DNA of 64,000 nucleotides from an uncultured Helicobacter sp. (GCA_947177485.1 CAMWUR010000004.1:271-64270), one strand, 5' to 3'; positions 48,334 to 60,574 are shown, counted from the stretch's first letter. The notes: generated from the letters alone by a model not told the origin. Made by a program: numbers and translations.

Positions 48334-48603
48334 TTAGAACAGCTCGCTATGGCTACCAAGACGCATTGCCAAAAGTTCTAAATATTCATTATTTATTTTA
48401 TAAATTAAAATAAGGTCGGGTCTAATATGGCAATCTCGGCAACCTTTAAAATTACCTACTAGTGCATGGTCATGATATTTATCTTCCAAAATTTCCTTTT
48501 TGGCAAGTTTGTCAAGAATTTTGAGTACTTGTTCTTTATCGCTTTGGGCGAGTTTTTTAAAAGATTTTTTAAATTTTTTTGTAAAGGTAATAGAATATGT
48601 CAT
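48334..48603 (-). CDS. type II TA toxin, YafQ/RelE-family mRNA interferase (copy 1)
   Basis: 89 aa with HDHALVGNFKGCRDCHIRPDLILIY...GSHSELF. Confidence 0.85.
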   Translation of the reverse strand: MTYSITFTKKFKKSFKKLAQSDKEQVLKILDKLAKKEILEDKYHDHALVGNFKGCRDCHIRPDLILIYKINNEYLELLAMRLGSHSELF

Positions 48604-48845
48604 GATTCTAAATCCGCCTTCAATTCTTCTATGCTATGAAAAGTTTTCAATGTGCCCTTTTTGCGTTTTCTTTCTATTTCTTTTATTGCCTTTTTGAGCC
48701 TTTTTTCTGCCTTTGGATTTAGGGTATAATTTGCTGCTGCACAAATGGGGCATTCCTCTTGAATCTGAAGTTTTGGATTAAAAGCCTTGAGGCTCTCTAA
48801 GACTCCCAAAACCTTAGAATCGGCATTTTTGACAACGAGTGTCAT
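48600..48845 (-). CDS. cognate antitoxin (copy 1) with the shared MT(L/I)xLKNxD N-terminal module
   Basis: 81 aa with a 4-nt overlap with the toxin. The N-terminal ~28 aa are shared with 49209..49421 and 50812..51003. Confidence 0.7.
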   Translation of the reverse strand: MTLVVKNADSKVLGVLESLKAFNPKLQIQEECPICAAANYTLNPKAEKRLKKAIKEIERKRKKGTLKTFHSIEELKADLES

Positions 48846-48894
48846 TTTTTCTCCTTTGTTTTTTGATGATGTCTTGTTTTGGCTTCATGTCGCT

Positions 48895-48936
48895 TTATTT
48901 GAGCAGGAATCCACATTTATAGACCTTTGATTTTGC
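48895..48936 (-). repeat. degenerate copy of the 3' end of gene 49461..50435
   Basis: It aligns with 49461..49502 at about two-thirds identity by eye. The core ATAGACCTTTG is identical, the stop codons align, and the translations are KVYKCGFLLK* versus KVYEYEFLLE*. Confidence 0.5.
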
Positions 48937-49206
48937 TTAAAATAGCTCACTATGGCTACTCACACGAACGCAAATGAGCACTAAAATATGTTCATATTTT
49001 TTATAGATTAAGAGCAAGTCAGGGCTGATATGGCATTCTCTGTGTCCCTGATAGAGACCGAATAGCGCATGGTCTCTATGACGTTCCTCTAGGGTTTCGT
49101 TGCGGGCAAGTTTTTCAATCATGCTATCAACAATATCGGCTTTACCTTGTTTTATTATTTTTTTGTAATCTTTTTTAAATTGTGATGTCCATTCTACCCG
49201 ATACAT
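48937..49206 (-). CDS. type II TA toxin, YafQ/RelE-family mRNA interferase (copy 2)
   Basis: 89 aa with RDHALFGLYQGHRECHISPDLLLIY...SSHSELF. Confidence 0.85.
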   Translation of the reverse strand: MYRVEWTSQFKKDYKKIIKQGKADIVDSMIEKLARNETLEERHRDHALFGLYQGHRECHISPDLLLIYKKYEHILVLICVRVSSHSELF

Positions 49207-49208
49207 TA

Positions 49209-49421
49209 TTAATCACCCAATAAAGCCTCTTTTGCTTCTTCCCACGAATCATAGGGCTTTCTTATGCCCTGTTTAATTTCTGTATAGATTGTTTCAGCCT
49301 CTGCCATTGCCTCTAATGTCTCTTGAGATATTTGAATAATCTCAAAATCTGGCTTTAAGATTTTCAGACTCTGAATGACATGCAACAATTCAATATCAAC
49401 ATTCTTCAAAACTAGTGTCAT
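49209..49421 (-). CDS. cognate antitoxin (copy 2) with the shared N-terminal module
   Basis: 70 aa, N-terminus MTLVLKNVDIELLHVIQSLKILKP. Confidence 0.7.
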   Translation of the reverse strand: MTLVLKNVDIELLHVIQSLKILKPDFEIIQISQETLEAMAEAETIYTEIKQGIRKPYDSWEEAKEALLGD

Positions 49422-49460
49422 TTTCTCTCCTTTGTTTTTGTATCGCTTTTTTGATTTTTG

Positions 49461-50435
49461 CTACTCGAGTAAAAACTCATATTCATAGACCTTTGGTTCA
49501 ATCTTTTTGGCGAGATTCTCGAGCTCATAGTTGAGATTCCCAATTAAATCTTTGTAATACGAATCTTTCGCCTTTTGTGGCGGATTCATTCTACCGCTCG
49601 CGCTTAGCCCTTGAAAATATGCCTTGATGTCATAGAGGCTTGCATTGGGATTATAGGGATTCTTAGAATCATGAAAATCTTGGCTATGGTAATATTGCCA
49701 AAGCTTGAGCCCCGCAGCAAAGACTGCCTTTGCCTCTTCGCTAAATTCTAAAGGCTCTGTGGGAATCAGATTTTCAACATAAAACGATTCCTCATCAAAG
49801 CCATTTTGTTCTTTTTTATTATGTTGAGTTGGCGCAACATCTCTCTTAAGGTTTTTGCGAGATTCTTCAGCTAGCGCTTCAGAATGACAAGCGGAGTCTT
49901 GTTTGATTTTGCCACTTATAAAACAAATCATGAAATCACTCTCAAACGCTTCTTTTGCGCCCACATCTGTTTCGGAAAATGGGATAAATGGATTTGTTCC
50001 CTCTTTGCTTGTAATGCGATTCTGCCCATGAAAAAGCATAAACGCGAGGCAATCATTTTGAAACTCTCTATCCTTTGCCCATTCCTTGTTTGGCATTAGG
50101 AATTGGTCGCGGTCGTTTATCCATGTGGCTTTGATACAATGGCGCACGGCGAAGTAAATGGAAACCAACATAATATTGTTTTTGGTAATTTTAAGTTTGG
50201 TTATTCCTTTAGCATTACCAACACCTTTTATAGAATCCCAAAAATTAATATTACAAAAATTACTATTTTGAAAATCTGTTCCTTTGCAACAAATTGTGCA
50301 AAGTTCTTGGGATTGCGTATCAACAAATTGTTTTATCCATTGATTAATGCTTTTTGCCTTGTCGTTTATATAAATCCTCTTTATCCCTAAAAATTCTCCA
50401 TTCCTATCAAACATATCAAGTCCTATTACTTTCAT
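49461..50435 (-). CDS. hypothetical protein; candidate detached target-recognition (C-terminal) part of the upstream nuclease-methylase
   Basis: 324 aa. Its start overlaps the Doc stop (ATGA). I recognised no catalytic motifs. Assigned by context only. Confidence 0.4.
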   Translation of the reverse strand: MKVIGLDMFDRNGEFLGIKRIYINDKAKSINQWIKQFVDTQSQELCTICCKGTDFQNSNFCNINFWDSIKGVGNAKGITKLKITKNNIMLVSIYFAVRHCIKATWINDRDQFLMPNKEWAKDREFQNDCLAFMLFHGQNRITSKEGTNPFIPFSETDVGAKEAFESDFMICFISGKIKQDSACHSEALAEESRKNLKRDVAPTQHNKKEQNGFDEESFYVENLIPTEPLEFSEEAKAVFAAGLKLWQYYHSQDFHDSKNPYNPNASLYDIKAYFQGLSASGRMNPPQKAKDSYYKDLIGNLNYELENLAKKIEPKVYEYEFLLE

Positions 50436-50815
50436 TGTGTCTCCAATAATTTTTTTAGTATTTTTTGTAAATCTTCTTTTGATATTTTGCCCTCTGCTAC
50501 AAAGACTACAATATCTTCTAATCTTTGATAAAAATCATCAGGTAAATGATTGGGACAATTGAGCTCTATAAACGCATTTGCTAGATAAATTGCAGTGCGC
50601 TTGTTTCCATCTGCAAAGGGGTGAAACTTCACACAGGCAAACATTAAATGTGTGAGTTTATCTAAAAAGTGAGGATAAAGTTCATCATTTTGAATTTGAC
50701 TCAAAGCAGAATCTAAAAGCCCGATTTGGCTTTTATTAAAACCCTTCAAGCCCCCCATTATTTCCATAATATCATCATGCAAGATAATTGCTTCATCAAG
50801 TGATAAATATTTCAT
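50432..50815 (-). CDS. Doc (death-on-curing) / Fic-family toxin
   Basis: 127 aa with the HPFADGNKRTA motif. Confidence 0.85.
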   Translation of the reverse strand: MKYLSLDEAIILHDDIMEIMGGLKGFNKSQIGLLDSALSQIQNDELYPHFLDKLTHLMFACVKFHPFADGNKRTAIYLANAFIELNCPNHLPDDFYQRLEDIVVFVAEGKISKEDLQKILKKLLETQ

Positions 50816-51003
50816 TTATCTTTTAATCTCTCAAATACTGCACGATTTTGCGGTTTATTTAGGTTTTGTTTCATTTTTTCTCGCAATAATGAAAATTCTT
50901 CTTTTTCCTCCCCTTTTTCAATAGTAAGTTTTGGATTCAAAGCCTGTAAGCTTTCAATCACTTGCAAAGTTGCAGAATCTACATTTTTAAGCGTTATTGT
51001 CAT
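50812..51003 (-). CDS. antitoxin for Doc carrying the same N-terminal module as the YafQ antitoxins
   Basis: 63 aa, N-terminus MTITLKNVDSATLQVIESLQALNPKL, with a 4-nt overlap with doc. Confidence 0.65.
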   Translation of the reverse strand: MTITLKNVDSATLQVIESLQALNPKLTIEKGEEKEEFSLLREKMKQNLNKPQNRAVFERLKDK

Positions 51004-51028
51004 TTTATCTCCTTTTTGCTATTATCAT

Positions 51029-52699
51029 TTATTGCTTGCCATTTTTGCTCAAATCCCAAACTAAGAATCCAATCGGAAATTGCCCCTTAACATTATCAAA
51101 AGTATCAGCTGGAACAATAAATCCTCCCTTAAACTCTGCCTTGAATAATTCTCTAAATTCAATAAAATTACTTGCATTCAGATATTTAAGTTTAGAAAAA
51201 CTTGCAAGTATGCAGTGTGGAATTTCTAAGTAAGTGCGTATAAAAAATTGCACAAAAAGTTCCCGTGTAGATTTTTTATATTTTTTGCCATATTGTTCCG
51301 AAACAAATGTTTGATTACTAACATTTATCTTGTTATTTGTTGTTTGTGTTATGGTTTTTGTACTAGCAGCTTCCGCATACGGCGGGTTGATAAAGATGAT
51401 GAGCTTTTTGCGTTTTTCTTTATCTTTGAGAATTTCTTGCAATTTTTTTGGAAGTTTAGAGTTTTGGCAGTTTCTGCAAGTAGAATCCAGCTTATCTTTA
51501 TGTTTTTCACAAGGCTTGTCGAAAAAACAATCATTCAAAAAATCAAATTGGAAAATGTGCCTTTCTAAAAGTGGCAAATGCTGATTTTTTGCAAGCTCTT
51601 TCATAATCTCCACATCTGCCTTATCGAGCGTTGAGGCATAAAAATTGCGTGGTTCGGTGAGGTTTGCAAACAGATTCCCTGTCCCTGCGGCACAATCCCA
51701 GACAATGTATTCACTCTGCCAATCTTCGCCTAACGCTTTAACAAGGTATTCTTGCGCCTTTTGCACCCAAACTTGTGGCGTAAAAAACGCCCCCTTGCGC
51801 TCGCGAATATCACTAGGCACGAGCAAATCGCGCCTATCGATGATATAATCCCAATAGATTTCTTTTGGAGGGCGCTCGTAGAGATTCCAAAACTCATTAT
51901 GGGCTTTTTGATTGTCTCTAAACGTTGCTGTGTCCTTTTGCTCCGACCCCATGAACGTGATGATTTTATTAAACTCATAATGTGTTTTTCTAAGCACAAC
52001 AAAGAGTTTATCTAGTAGGCTTTGATTCTCGATACTTAGCAAATCGGCGAGATAGAAATCCGCGTCCAAAATGCCCGAGCTTTTGGCAAGATTCCAATCA
52101 ATGCTAATAGAATCCTTCACACTTAAAAGCCATTTTTGATAAACATTTGTGAAATTATTCTTTGTGATTTGAATCCTATGCACATGCTCATTTTCGAGCG
52201 TGAAATTCTCCCTGATAAACTCGCGCAATTCTTTAGAATCATGCTCAAAATCAAATTGCAATTTCTTGGATTCCAAAATATCTTTTGACTTTGCATAGAG
52301 TTGCCTAAATTCCTTCGTGCTGTGGTCGCTCGGTGCGACATTCCAATTAAAATCATTTTGGCTAAAAATATCCATGATTTCATAATACGGAATAAACGCG
52401 ATTTTCTCGCAATCAAACGCGCCCAAGAAAAGCGGCGGGAGCTCGTTTTCAAATGTTCTTTCCTTGCCAATCGTTAGAATCAGCTGCACAAACGATTCCA
52501 CAATATCCGCTTTATTCCCCCTCTTTGCCTCTGCCCAAAGAAAATGGATTGCCTGAAACAATGTCTTGGCGCGATACGACACGCAAAAATCAATTTTGCC
52601 CATCGTTGACATGTCCAATCCCTTGAAAAAATCATGCGCGATATGGTTTTTCAAATCCTCTTCAGGCATATTTTGCGCATACATCAACCCCTCCTTCAC
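51029..52699 (-). CDS. gamma-class N6-adenine methyltransferase domain fused to an N-terminal PD-(D/E)xK-like region (type IIG/IIL-like, lacking a TRD)
   Basis: 556 aa with GAFFTPQVWV, VWDCAAGTGNL (motif I) and FINPPYAEA (motif IV). The N-terminus has IDF-x17-WAEAK (D-x19-E-x-K). Confidence 0.7.
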   Translation of the reverse strand: MKEGLMYAQNMPEEDLKNHIAHDFFKGLDMSTMGKIDFCVSYRAKTLFQAIHFLWAEAKRGNKADIVESFVQLILTIGKERTFENELPPLFLGAFDCEKIAFIPYYEIMDIFSQNDFNWNVAPSDHSTKEFRQLYAKSKDILESKKLQFDFEHDSKELREFIRENFTLENEHVHRIQITKNNFTNVYQKWLLSVKDSISIDWNLAKSSGILDADFYLADLLSIENQSLLDKLFVVLRKTHYEFNKIITFMGSEQKDTATFRDNQKAHNEFWNLYERPPKEIYWDYIIDRRDLLVPSDIRERKGAFFTPQVWVQKAQEYLVKALGEDWQSEYIVWDCAAGTGNLFANLTEPRNFYASTLDKADVEIMKELAKNQHLPLLERHIFQFDFLNDCFFDKPCEKHKDKLDSTCRNCQNSKLPKKLQEILKDKEKRKKLIIFINPPYAEAASTKTITQTTNNKINVSNQTFVSEQYGKKYKKSTRELFVQFFIRTYLEIPHCILASFSKLKYLNASNFIEFRELFKAEFKGGFIVPADTFDNVKGQFPIGFLVWDLSKNGKQ

Positions 52700-56888: not shown

Positions 56889-56963
56889 TCCGGATTAGCT
56901 CAGCGGTAGAGTAGGTGGCTGTTAACCACTTGGTCGCAGGTTCGAATCCTGCATCCGGAGCCA
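56889..56963 (+). tRNA. tRNA-Asn (GTT)
   Basis: Cloverleaf folded by hand: acceptor TCCGGAT/ATCCGGA, anticodon loop CTGTTAA, T-loop TTCGAAT, encoded CCA. Confidence 0.9.
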
Positions 56964-57011
56964 TATCCCCTTTGTGTATGTTTATTGATTATTGTCTGTT
57001 CTATTGTTCTT

Positions 57012-57087
57012 GGTCGCGTAGCTCAGTTGGTAGAGCACTACCTTGACATGGTAGTGGTCGCTGGTTCAAGTCCAGTCGTGGCCACCA
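57012..57087 (+). tRNA. tRNA-Val (GAC)
   Basis: Acceptor GGTCGCG/CGTGGCC, anticodon stem CTACC/GGTAG with loop TTGACAT, encoded CCA. Confidence 0.9.
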
Positions 57088-60486: not shown

Positions 60487-60574
60487 TGGCAGACAGAAGG
60501 GGATTCGAACCCCTGAAGGCTTGCACCTTACACGCGTTCCAGGCGTGCTCCTTCGACCACTCGGACACCTGTCT
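60487..60574 (-). tRNA. tRNA-Ser (GGA)
   Basis: The reverse complement AGACAGGTGTCCGAGTGGTCGAAGGAG...CTGGAAC...GGGGTTCGAATCCCCTTCTGTCTGCCA has a long variable arm and an A1:U72 first pair. Confidence 0.85.

Follow-up and report, generated by a model that had tools for sequence, protein, structure and literature searches.

An antitoxin–Doc cassette probably splits a putative single-chain restriction–modification enzyme at its methylase/recognition boundary in a Helicobacter lineage

In the window, the stretch of 64,000 nucleotides from an uncultured Helicobacter sp. analysed here, a Doc toxin gene and its antitoxin lie between two ORFs of a putative restriction–modification (R-M) system. This raises the question whether the two ORFs are parts of one enzyme, and how a toxin–antitoxin (TA) pair came to separate them. 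A sequence-only reading of the locus had offered two answers, namely that (a) a TA cassette invaded and split a fused R-M-S gene, or that (b) the four genes form a deliberate operon. The features are compiled in Table 1. ORF calling placed all operon ORFs on the minus strand, matching the earlier description, and a direct read of the sequence confirmed the junctions given there: the 556-aa ORF terminates ...FPIGFLVWDLSKNGKQ-TAA, exactly 25 nt including AAAGGAG separate this stop from the antitoxin ATG, and ATGA overlaps are found both between antitoxin and Doc and between Doc and the 324-aa ORF. The proposed operon would therefore run from an RM half over the 25 nt with a ribosome-binding site (RBS) to the antitoxin, Doc and a recognition half, the last three joined by the overlaps. 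The true start of the first ORF is probably the internal ATG, giving 551 aa, as judged from the deposited entry and the fused homologs. The parts upstream and downstream of the cassette are referred to as N half and C half in the following.

Table 1. Positions of the operon, the neighbouring cassettes and the surrounding island, counted from the first letter of the window.
Feature	Position	Strand	Basis or remark
N half, 556 aa from GTG	52699..51029	minus	ORF
N half, alternative, 551 aa from ATG	starts 52684	minus	NCBI entry MDE7316291.1 and fused homologs
Antitoxin of the Doc pair, 63 aa	51003..50812	minus	ORF
Doc toxin (Fic fold), 127 aa	50815..50432	minus	ORF and Fic/DOC profile matches
C half, 324 aa	50435..49461	minus	ORF; corresponds to residues 551–870 of the fused enzyme
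Hypervariable TRD-like module, first ~92 codons of C half	50160..50435	minus	Entropy, core types
Second TA cassette	48937..49421	minus	70-aa antitoxin 49421..49209 and YafQ/RelE toxin 49206..48937
Third TA cassette	48334..48845	minus	81-aa antitoxin 48845..48600 and YafQ/RelE toxin 48603..48334
Relic copy of the R-M gene 3' end	48896..48932	minus	Repeat, 73% identical to 49462–49498
Low-GC island	48334..52699		GC profile; between a phosphonate-binding-protein gene and an MBL-fold hydrolase gene

Both halves show homology to a single ancestral ORF. The fused 870-aa homolog P0122 shares 83% identity with the 556-aa protein over residues 1–550 and 72% with the 324-aa protein over residues 551–870 (E = 3e-165), and P0194 of C. 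upsaliensis likewise matches both halves within one ORF. Over 8000 hits were obtained, their lengths clustering at about 550–570 aa and about 865–895 aa, and single-ORF relatives of ~805–895 aa number in the hundreds across many phyla. Among 80 GTDB species loci from at least five phyla, most show both parts abutting in one ORF of 805–840 aa; the remaining loci represent contig-end cuts, frameshifts, or Campylobacterota loci with TA genes. Judged from these homologs, a single ORF of about 805–895 aa is the ancestral and overwhelmingly common form, which runs from a nuclease-like domain over a spacer, the methylase and the variable module to the C-terminal domain. The earlier proposal that the 556 and 324 aa add up to a single-chain enzyme was thereby borne out, and the refuting condition named with it turned out in its favour. 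The family (1828 clusters at 50% identity) is widespread but undescribed and has no Pfam family of its own; its members are all named “hypothetical protein” in the databases. Paralogs missing exactly the N-terminal ~290 aa adjoin full-length copies.

The orthologous locus itself is uninterrupted in a syntenic sister Helicobacter genome (L086), which has at this chromosomal position a gene of 870 aa that is 83% (residues 1–550) and 72% (residues 551–870) identical to the two halves. Both flanks are common to the window, this genome and a further one (L087) at 83–88% nucleotide identity, the intact gene encoding 870 and 848 aa, respectively. In L086 an antitoxin–Doc pair is located downstream of the intact gene, not inside it. 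Fused alleles coexist with split alleles at the same chromosomal locus, and the two states are interleaved in a tree of the N part. In the window, the operon is part of an island with a GC content of 0.32–0.42, compared to about 0.45–0.54 in the flanks, which holds two more antitoxin/YafQ pairs downstream of the operon. Their toxins match the profiles YafQ_toxin (4.9e-29 and 8.7e-29 for the second and third cassette) and RelE_StbE (5.6e-23 and 4.4e-23). The stretch 48932..48600 aligns at the nucleotide level with L086 10576..10900, which comprises the fused gene's end and the antitoxin, and the relic of the R-M gene 3' end marks an earlier rearrangement of the cassette array.

The N half shows the motifs that had been claimed for it. 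D37-x19-E57-A-K59, motif X (G303-AFFTPQ), motif I (W334-DCAAGTGNL) and motif IV (N438-PPY) are invariant in the family alignment, the latter three spanning residues 303–309, 334–343 and 438–441. Based on sequence and Foldseek comparison, a gamma-class N6-adenine methylase with the motif order X, I, IV is thus found in one polypeptide, and the N half is best described as a PD-(D/E)xK-like N-terminal domain, a helical spacer and a gamma-class N6-adenine DNA methyltransferase, all with putative activities. Family-wide, D32, E52-x-K54 and Q67 are invariant or nearly so, and the D...ExK and Q residues are kept, with the spacing D-x8-ExK, in relatives at about 20–35% identity over the N-terminal domain. 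Comparison of this domain with Pfam gave sub-threshold matches only, to Cas4 (1.5e-4) and HSDR_N (7.6e-3), and comparison with PDB sequences and nuclease families gave no significant match; the model is of low confidence across the N-terminal ~100 residues (pLDDT 41–79). The assignment as PD-(D/E)xK-like nuclease domain is attributed to the conserved motif together with these sub-threshold matches. The AF2 model of the fused protein (overall pLDDT 76) retrieved LlaBIII (9.5e-8) and DrdV (5.4e-7) as well as CamA, EcoKI M2S1, M.BseCI and BrxX, with E values of 1e-7 to 1e-5 and a probability of 1.00; because the Foldseek output comes without query ranges, only the methylase fold can be regarded as firmly matched.

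The split point falls on a domain boundary. The N half stops right behind the final strand of its methylase, in agreement with the sequence-only reading, which had it stop after the catalytic domain, and in the fused model the break corresponds to a loop (residues 545–552) flanked by the strands 537–544 and 553–559. That reading had also seen a possible target duplication in the weakly similar residues WDLSKNGK and LDMFDRNGE. The fused homolog holds every residue once, the N half ending at ~550 and the C half starting at 551, with RNGEF pairing with MKDSF in the junction alignment, and no direct repeat flanking the TA cassette was found at the DNA level. A target-site duplication is therefore unsupported.

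At the same split point begins the hypervariable, cassette-like block of the family (~100 aa). The entropy reaches 1.8–2.3 bits at residues 541–640 of P0122, as compared to 0.5–0.9 in neighbouring blocks, and nucleotide identity to the syntenic locus collapses from 51042 to 50159. The core of the variable module (~45–50 aa) exists as discrete, exchanged types with 71–80% identity within and 21–44% between types, independent of the other parts of the gene. The core in the window shares 80% identity with the one in H. winghamensis and 24–27% with other types, and the same core types occur in otherwise divergent alleles, split and fused alike. DNA recognition by this module is putative. The proposal that the 324-aa protein is a TRD holds for its first ~90 aa, to which TRD-like behaviour appears confined by sequence variability; the remainder is a conserved domain, and about 70 invariant positions are kept in the C half of split alleles. 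The variable module is below the size of typical TRDs. A total of 1189 homologs of the C half were found, and Pfam, Methylase_S included, gave no match at all. Modelled alone, the C half performed poorly (pLDDT 63) and gave no structural matches.

The prototypical Doc of phage P1 is an EF-Tu kinase. The Doc of the window matches Pfam Fic (PF02661, 3.7e-15), TIGR01550 DOC_P1 (3e-10; 40.3 bits, above the cut-off of 38.65) and PADLOC PDC-M59B (9.5e-18), and aligns end to end (residues 1–123) with P1 Doc (3k33, 8e-7), HPFADGNKRTA pairing with HIFNDANKRTA. Thus, it shares with P1 Phd–Doc the 127-aa Fic-fold toxin, the Doc-type motif HxFx(D/N)(A/G)NKR (here HPFADGNKR) and a small upstream antitoxin with overlapping stop. 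The 63-aa antitoxin, conversely, has no family in Pfam, NCBIfam or PADLOC and no detectable Phd/YefM homology; its N-terminal ~30 aa are common to both YafQ antitoxins, whereas its C-terminus (..VFERLKDK) is Doc-specific. This antitoxin, with its C-terminus, accompanies Doc in all split loci.

A toxin gene inside the R-M operon is found in the window and nine related loci, and the four genes keep this arrangement in species of both Helicobacter and Campylobacter. The split order, with ~570 aa, 64 aa, a 127-aa Fic protein and ~300 aa, was found in C. helveticus, H. winghamensis, H. cinaedi (complete genome AP025204) and several MAGs, where its chromosomal position differs. Values of dN/dS amount to 0.16–0.21 for the N half, 0.12–0.27 for the conserved part of the C half, 0.04–0.35 for the antitoxin and 0.07–0.16 for Doc. 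All four genes are thus under purifying selection, as is expected for a maintained operon and not for a dead gene. Still, the arrangement is not always maintained, as shown by decay in some related loci: the N half is frameshifted in two (L014, L090) and lost in one (L013), a fourth retains the antitoxin only (L008), and two are split by frameshifts with the insert absent (L089, L092). Of the two answers quoted at the outset, each captured part of the truth, since a TA cassette split the gene and the product is a four-gene operon maintained under selection.

Between H. winghamensis, H. cinaedi and C. helveticus, amino-acid identity is 92–100% for antitoxin–Doc, compared to 65–90% for the N half and 44–57% for the variable module, and dS of antitoxin–Doc is lower than that of the flanking halves (e.g. 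0.09/0.19 versus 1.27). The junction is occupied by Doc, by YafQ plus Doc, by YafQ alone, or by an antitoxin alone. The antitoxin genes have the RBS and 5' coding sequence in common, and the YafQ cassette of H. cinaedi is joined exactly inside this shared sequence. TA occupants of the junction therefore turn over by recombination, and Doc is one among several interchangeable occupants. In an unrelated lineage, HicAB is inserted at a distance of ~10 residues from this junction; the 74 closest relatives of that locus all lack an insert.

The sequence-only reading had placed the enzyme with those of the MmeI kind. The predicted architecture agrees with this. Type IIG/IIL enzymes (MmeI, DrdV; BpuSI; type ISP LlaBIII in its methylase–TRD part) show the domain order predicted here, from an N-terminal PD-(D/E)xK-type motif to a helical C-terminal domain, a total length of about 810–890 aa and a solitary mobile gene, and LlaBIII and DrdV are the best Foldseek matches of the family. 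Membership in the MmeI family was rejected, as none of the Pfam domains MmeI_N, hel, Mtase, TRD and C was detected in the window proteins, 43 family members and 10 distant representatives (E <= 0.01–0.1). Eco57I or other Pfam domains did not exceed the threshold either, the N6_Mtase matches being sub-threshold, and no PDB sequence matched; the family is undescribed and of the same architecture, with a variable module of ~100 aa. Moreover, the coding sequence is divided over two genes that flank a TA pair in the window, and R, M and S occur in a single polypeptide in the fused homologs only. Catalysis and recognition reside on separate, associating polypeptides in BcgI A/B and HsdM/HsdS. By analogy, the window would likewise divide putative catalysis (nuclease and methylase) from recognition, albeit with a 324-aa half that lacks HsdS/Methylase_S homology, shows a single variable block instead of duplicated TRDs, and derives its two-gene state from a fused ancestor.

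Type I R-M loci with embedded toxins are already known. prrC is located inside EcoprrI (PMC12707154); Doc, RhuM and HEPN toxins are embedded in R-M operons and have been proposed as layered defence (PMC3710099); and in the pneumococcal SpnIV (tvr) locus, the phd–doc homologs tvrAT lie among shuffling hsdS fragments, where they modulate the type I locus, an effect of TvrAT on recombinase transcription being reported, and are experimentally not TA-like (PMC6265443). The nesting of a translation-targeting toxin gene beside specificity determinants is the same. However, those toxins lie between separate type I genes, whereas the cassette of the window lies inside one ancestral ORF and creates two subunits; a single-chain R-M enzyme split by a toxin was not found in the literature searched. 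In contrast to those systems, no recombinase is present here, the antitoxin is not Phd-like, and the occupant is exchangeable with YafQ cassettes. The dedicated antitoxin would argue for ordinary TA control over a PrrC-type control by R-M proteins. The module types resemble the “domain movement” of TRDs in type I S, type IIG and type III genes of H. pylori (Furuta et al. 2011, 2014; PMC3077401, PMC3983042) in that discrete types recur in divergent alleles, the mosaics being consistent with recombination after natural transformation; that work includes neither the present family nor a linked TA cassette.

The island is therefore probably best explained as a single-chain R-M-S enzyme of type IIG/IIL architecture, split at the methylase/recognition boundary by antitoxin–Doc and maintained as an operon. 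R-M genes are often pseudogenised in Helicobacter, and the frameshifted, N-less and insert-free split loci mentioned above would suit an insertion that inactivated the enzyme, leaving decaying remnants or a relic linked to a TA addiction module. Such gene death is highly improbable in view of halves that have stayed intact in the window as well as in five or more further species or MAGs despite near-saturated synonymous divergence (dN/dS 0.1–0.27), with all catalytic motifs, the invariant C-half positions, the RBS and the overlapping stop/start codons preserved and the variable module still exchanged among split alleles. It is also quite unlikely that the protein is not a restriction enzyme and carries a non-nucleolytic N-terminal domain, as an orphan or epigenetic methylase or a BREX-like component would, so that the split parts a methylase from a specificity or accessory domain. 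The absence of a significant nuclease-family or solved-structure match, the low model confidence, the uninformative database names and the structural neighbours CamA (an orphan methylase) and BrxX are in line with this proposal. It is at odds with the invariant D...E-x-K and downstream Q in their predicted strand/helix context in remote relatives, with sub-threshold matches solely to PD-(D/E)xK families, with N-terminally shortened paralogs that resemble the companion methylases of type IIG/IIS systems, and with a gene that is solitary, horizontally mobile, low in GC and equipped with a hypervariable recognition module.

A functional coupling, with the TA pair integrated in defence instead of hitchhiking, draws on the same precedents and on antitoxin–Doc being the most conserved part of the operon, on the ATGA overlap that couples the recognition half to Doc at the level of translation, and on the HicAB pair close to the same junction. 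The pair could then act as a PrrC-like guardian that fires upon R-M inhibition or host transcription stop, or, by analogy to TvrAT, the antitoxin–Doc complex could regulate expression of the translationally coupled recognition subunit. We consider this rather unlikely: with an interchangeable occupant and a Doc pair outside the intact sister gene, the cassette looks more like a mobile passenger than like a co-adapted part, its low dS points to recent horizontal spread and not to constraint alone, and the closest relatives of the HicAB locus carry no insert.

In the preferred reading of a split and maintained R-M-S enzyme, the cassette would have divided the gene in the Helicobacter lineage of the window, and the halves may reassemble non-covalently into an active enzyme, like the RM and S subunits of BcgI-type or type I systems, as suggested by their joint conservation. 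Enzyme activity and any role of the cassette are inferred. Doc and a labile antitoxin may serve as an addiction or abortive-infection module that stabilises the mobile island and is carried along when natural transformation swaps the recognition module beside it. A further-reaching reading, which we regard as doubtful, is that the methylase/recognition boundary has been selected as a place where TA modules dock (Doc and YafQ in Campylobacterota, HicAB independently elsewhere) and that the TA is not a passive passenger. If so, the TA would contribute post-segregational killing, an ability not expected of a single-chain R-M-S enzyme, whose R and M activities decay together. Moreover, it would place a strongly conserved “handle” of sequence beside the hypervariable module, promoting exchange of recognition cassettes via transformation, and the locus would amount to a TA-linked system by which specificity is stabilised and swapped.

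The island carrying the split enzyme has a GC content of 0.32–0.42, compared with about 0.45–0.54 outside, and two antitoxin/YafQ pairs also lie within it. Reading of the ORFs and the sequence bore out the coordinates and all sequence details of the sequence-only reading, and all of the ORFs are on the minus strand. The N half is a maximal ORF; the ATG at 52684 gives a 551-aa protein (MYAQNMPEE...), as in the NCBI annotation, and agrees with the start of the homologs. A gap of 25 nt, containing AAAGGAG, separates its stop codon from the 63-aa antitoxin ORF, and ATGA overlaps are present at both the antitoxin/Doc and the Doc/324-aa junctions. The 127-aa protein is assigned as a Doc toxin on the basis of its Fic match (3.7e-15), a DOC_P1 score that exceeds the cut-off, and a full-length match with P1 Doc, in which HIFNDANKRTA is aligned to HPFADGNKRTA. 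Its best PADLOC match is the candidate defence system component PDC-M59B (9.5e-18), and no PADLOC model matches the other three operon proteins. In the window, tRNA-Asn(GTT) and tRNA-Val(GAC) on the plus strand are found about 4 kb from the island (56889–57087 and 60487–60574 listed), together with tRNA-Ser(GGA) on the minus strand; no tRNA adjoins the island and no integrase was seen.

Coordinates of the operon, its surroundings and the compared loci
Feature	Locus	Position	Strand	Remark
N half, 556 aa	window	52699..51029	minus	maximal ORF, GTG start
Antitoxin, 63 aa	window	51003..50812	minus	ORF
Doc, 127 aa	window	50815..50432	minus	ORF
C half, 324 aa	window	50435..49461	minus	ORF
Antitoxin, 70 aa	window	49421-49209
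Antitoxin, 81 aa	window	48845-48600
Low-GC island	window	48334-52699		4.4 kb
Stretch lacking similarity to L086	window	51042-50159
Relic of R-M gene 3' end	window	48896-48932		37 nt, copy of 49462-49498
Orphan 81-aa antitoxin and antitoxin-Doc pair	L086	10655-11500		downstream of the intact gene
HicAB-split gene	L088	4001-7318
Variant operon	L090/L091	122-3356		frameshifted N half
N-terminally short paralog	L036	3028-4611
N-terminally short paralog	L055	5275-6819
N-terminally short paralog	L059	2673-4235
N-terminally short paralog	L069	6974-8548

That the 556-aa and 324-aa proteins are halves of one protein, as had been proposed, is borne out by contiguous homologs. By length, homologs of the 556-aa protein form two groups, of about 550–570 aa and about 865–895 aa. 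The uninterrupted 870-aa homolog P0122, the nearest of the long group, covers both halves, with 83% identity between its residues 1–550 and the 556-aa protein, and 72% identity (E 3e-165) between residues 551–870 and the 324-aa protein; the fused homolog from C. upsaliensis, P0194, aligns in the same way, and H. trogontum likewise carries a fused allele. Scanning a single genome for each GTDB species turned up relatives in at least 582 species, the 80 best of which belong to Bacteroidota, Spirochaetota, Planctomycetota, Pseudomonadota, Acidobacteriota and Campylobacterota. At most of these 80 loci both parts abut in a single ORF of 805–840 aa, and the remainder are contig-end cuts, frameshifts, or Campylobacterota loci with TA genes. 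An exhaustive HMMER search returned 1828 clusters at 50% identity, mostly of 800–880 aa. The fused form is therefore ancestral and the rule. The longer homologs of the C half, with 430–545 aa, were considered as Doc fusions; this was rejected, since they are fused genes that are truncated or carry frameshifts.

When the fused P0122 was modelled with AlphaFold2 from 83 diverse homologs (mean pLDDT 76), the break came to lie in the loop 545–552, between the last methylase strand FPIGFLIW (537–544) and strand 553–559, the first of the next domain. The N half thus does end right after the catalytic domain, as first read. The break coincides with the start of a hypervariable block: column entropy reaches 1.8–2.3 bits at residues 541–640, with very conserved blocks on either side. 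The core of this block, about 45–50 aa, falls into discrete types that do not follow the remainder of the gene. The core in the window shares 80% identity with that of H. winghamensis and 24–27% with the others, and between the cores of the split L012 allele and the fused P0122 identity is 71%. From the position of the break and the start of the block it follows that the 324-aa protein comprises a recognition module and a conserved C-terminal domain. The proposal of a putative TRD therefore applies to its beginning but not to the remainder.

The orthologous locus L086, on the metagenomic Helicobacter contig that encodes P0122, reveals the same site with the gene intact. Both flanks are common to the window at 83–88% nucleotide identity, with an MBL-fold hydrolase, an HD phosphohydrolase (Pfam HD + HD_assoc) and an aminotransferase on one side and a phosphonate-binding protein and an acyl-CoA dehydrogenase on the other. 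Nucleotide similarity is lost exactly over the antitoxin, Doc and the initial ~92 codons of the C half. After the intact gene in L086 comes an orphan 81-aa antitoxin with no YafQ partner, and after that an intact antitoxin-Doc pair, positioned downstream of the gene and not inside it. The Doc proteins of L086 and the window are only 63% identical. The weak likeness of the residues on the two sides of the insert had been taken to suggest a target-site duplication. This was not upheld: the junction residues pair one-to-one with the fused homolog and there is no flanking direct repeat, the sole repeated element at the insertion being the RBS and start of the antitoxin genes.

As to whether the split is an accident of one genome or a maintained arrangement, the comparison argues for the latter. 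The order of ~570 aa, 64 aa, 127-aa Fic and ~300 aa recurs in H. winghamensis, H. cinaedi (complete genome), C. helveticus and several Helicobacter MAGs, and the chromosomal site differs among these species. Between split loci, dN/dS (Nei-Gojobori) amounts to 0.16–0.21 for the N half, 0.07–0.16 for Doc and 0.14–0.27 for the conserved part of the C half, and low values persist between operons saturated at synonymous sites. No variation is seen at about 70 positions of the C half or in any catalytic motif of the N half. By these measures the split form is a conserved operon rather than an accident, and conservation and selection on the halves indicate that both still do something visible to selection. 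Decayed or variant operons occur as well: L090/L091 combine a frameshifted N half with a YafQ pair in the junction, the N half is missing from L013, and nothing but the antitoxin is left between the halves in L008 and L014.

One independent case was identified. In L088, from an unrelated low-GC lineage, a 55-aa ORF and HicB/HicA interrupt the gene about 10 residues further downstream; the N half of L088 is 41–46% identical to everything else and its nearest relatives are all fused. The 74 metagenome relatives closest to L088 all lack the insert; TA-mediated splitting outside Campylobacterota is therefore rare, and L088 was the one HicAB case in a search for more TA-split lineages. Other "half" proteins (L089, L092, L093, L094) were dismissed as TA splits, being frameshift splits, contig ends or fragments, and orphans.

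Within the Campylobacterota clade the occupant of the junction varies. It is antitoxin-Doc in the window, L001, L002, L005 and L012, a YafQ pair plus antitoxin-Doc in L003, L004, L010 and L011, the YafQ pair alone in L090 and L091, and only an antitoxin in L008 and L014. RBS and the first ~30 codons are common to all antitoxin genes. The three window antitoxins share an N-terminal stretch of ~30 aa, MT[IL]xLKN[VA]D..L.V[IL].SL., followed by toxin-specific C-termini (..VFERLKDK for the Doc antitoxin, other tails for the two YafQ antitoxins); judging by this pattern they are a modular family, for which no Pfam, NCBIfam or PDB match was obtained. The joint of the extra YafQ cassette in H. cinaedi falls within the shared antitoxin stretch, suggesting homologous recombination between cassettes. 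Identity among H. winghamensis, H. cinaedi and C. helveticus is 92–100% for antitoxin and Doc, 65–90% for the N half and 44–57% for the variable module. For antitoxin and Doc, dS lies several-fold below that of the flanks, and the cassette has therefore spread recently between alleles. In the neighbour-joining tree built from the N half, split alleles are scattered among fused ones; the nearest relatives of the window are fused, as are all outgroups. Such a pattern fits allele exchange by recombination; these bacteria are naturally transformable. The 37-nt relic, which has the first YafQ gene on one side and the 81-aa antitoxin on the other, is a record of an earlier rearrangement of the cassette array. 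As the 81-aa antitoxin directly follows the gene in L086, the cassette of the 70-aa antitoxin and YafQ came in together with the gene-end duplication.

Searches of the window proteins, 43 family members and 10 distant representatives revealed no covering family in Pfam, NCBIfam or PADLOC, with sub-threshold matches to N6_Mtase, MTase_II and Cas4 only, and profile searches against PDB sequences gave nothing or spurious Rab matches. The N-half motifs GAFFTPQ, WDCAAGTGNL, NPPY and D37-x19-E57-A-K59 are present and invariant among homologs, and across the family the N-terminal residues D32, E52-x-K54 and Q67 show little or no variation. Relatives at about 20–35% identity over the N-terminal domain keep the motif with a spacing shortened to D-x8-ExK, and the weak family matches of this domain are all PD-(D/E)xK nucleases (Cas4 1.5e-4, HSDR_N 7.6e-3). 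Foldseek comparison of the fused model with the PDB returned solely gamma-class N6-adenine DNA methyltransferases carrying recognition domains (E 1e-7 to 1e-5), comprising LlaBIII (type ISP), DrdV (MmeI family), CamA, EcoKI M2S1, M.BseCI and BrxX; as the output came without query ranges, it assigns nothing to the C-terminal domains. The 324-aa protein modelled alone (pLDDT 63) gave no Foldseek matches at E < 1. As a whole it has the architecture of a type IIG/IIL R-M-S enzyme, with the nuclease assigned at the level of the motif only. The likeness to the MmeI kind thus holds for the architecture but not for the family, which is not MmeI. In some Bacteroidota and Hyphomicrobiales MAGs, 513–526-aa paralogs adjoin full-length genes, and two or three tandem copies are found in L046 and L059. 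The paralogs start at about residue 291; they lack the nuclease-like domain and the spacer, keep the methylase, recognition and C-terminal parts, and may be companion methylases.

Homology of the halves to one ORF, break position, conservation, selection, module exchange and cassette turnover come directly from the comparison. As for function, the halves would reassemble as catalytic and recognition subunits, in the manner of BcgI A/B or HsdM/HsdS; the enzyme so formed would methylate and restrict DNA at a site that the variable module recognises. The toxin, by analogy with its P1 counterpart, would arrest translation upon loss of the antitoxin and could thereby stabilise the island or serve as an abortive-infection back-up. 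A single-chain R-M-S enzyme is expected to be poor at post-segregational killing because its R and M activities decay together; more speculatively, the nested TA pair could supply this function.

TA or toxin genes embedded in R-M systems are already known, and are found here in an R-M-like family without prior characterisation. The prrC gene lies within EcoprrI (PMC12707154), type I operons with Doc, RhuM and HEPN genes inside have been described (PMC3710099), and in Helicobacter R-M genes recognition domains are exchanged (PMC3077401, PMC3983042). The closest known case to the embedded Doc of the window is the pneumococcal SpnIV locus, where the phd-doc homologs tvrAT are found among shuffling hsdS fragments; tvrAT modulated recombinase expression and did not display TA behaviour (PMC6265443). 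The known embedded toxins reside in type I operons, whereas in the window a TA cassette is found inside a single ancestral ORF. The full-text literature searched yielded no description of this protein family, no TA cassette inside a type IIG gene, and no case in which such a cassette turned an ancestrally single-chain enzyme into a maintained two-subunit operon.

In summary, the observation of a Doc module nested in a putative restriction enzyme gene is confirmed and its interpretation supported, with the corrections described. The R-M-like family is large, with >1800 clusters at 50% identity and members in many phyla, and has no entry in Pfam or PADLOC; annotation pipelines will name the halves "hypothetical proteins" and miss the system. 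The locus extends the wider case of toxins in R-M loci, with evidence that TA cassettes turn over at the junction and travel with the recognition module. Having both the fused and the split allele at a single locus makes for a clean experimental system. With the enzyme as one chain in one sister genome and as two chains in the other, at the same chromosomal locus, this natural split/fused pair makes it testable whether type IIG-like enzymes tolerate the separation of catalysis and recognition, and how multi-subunit R-M systems could have come from fused ones or the reverse.
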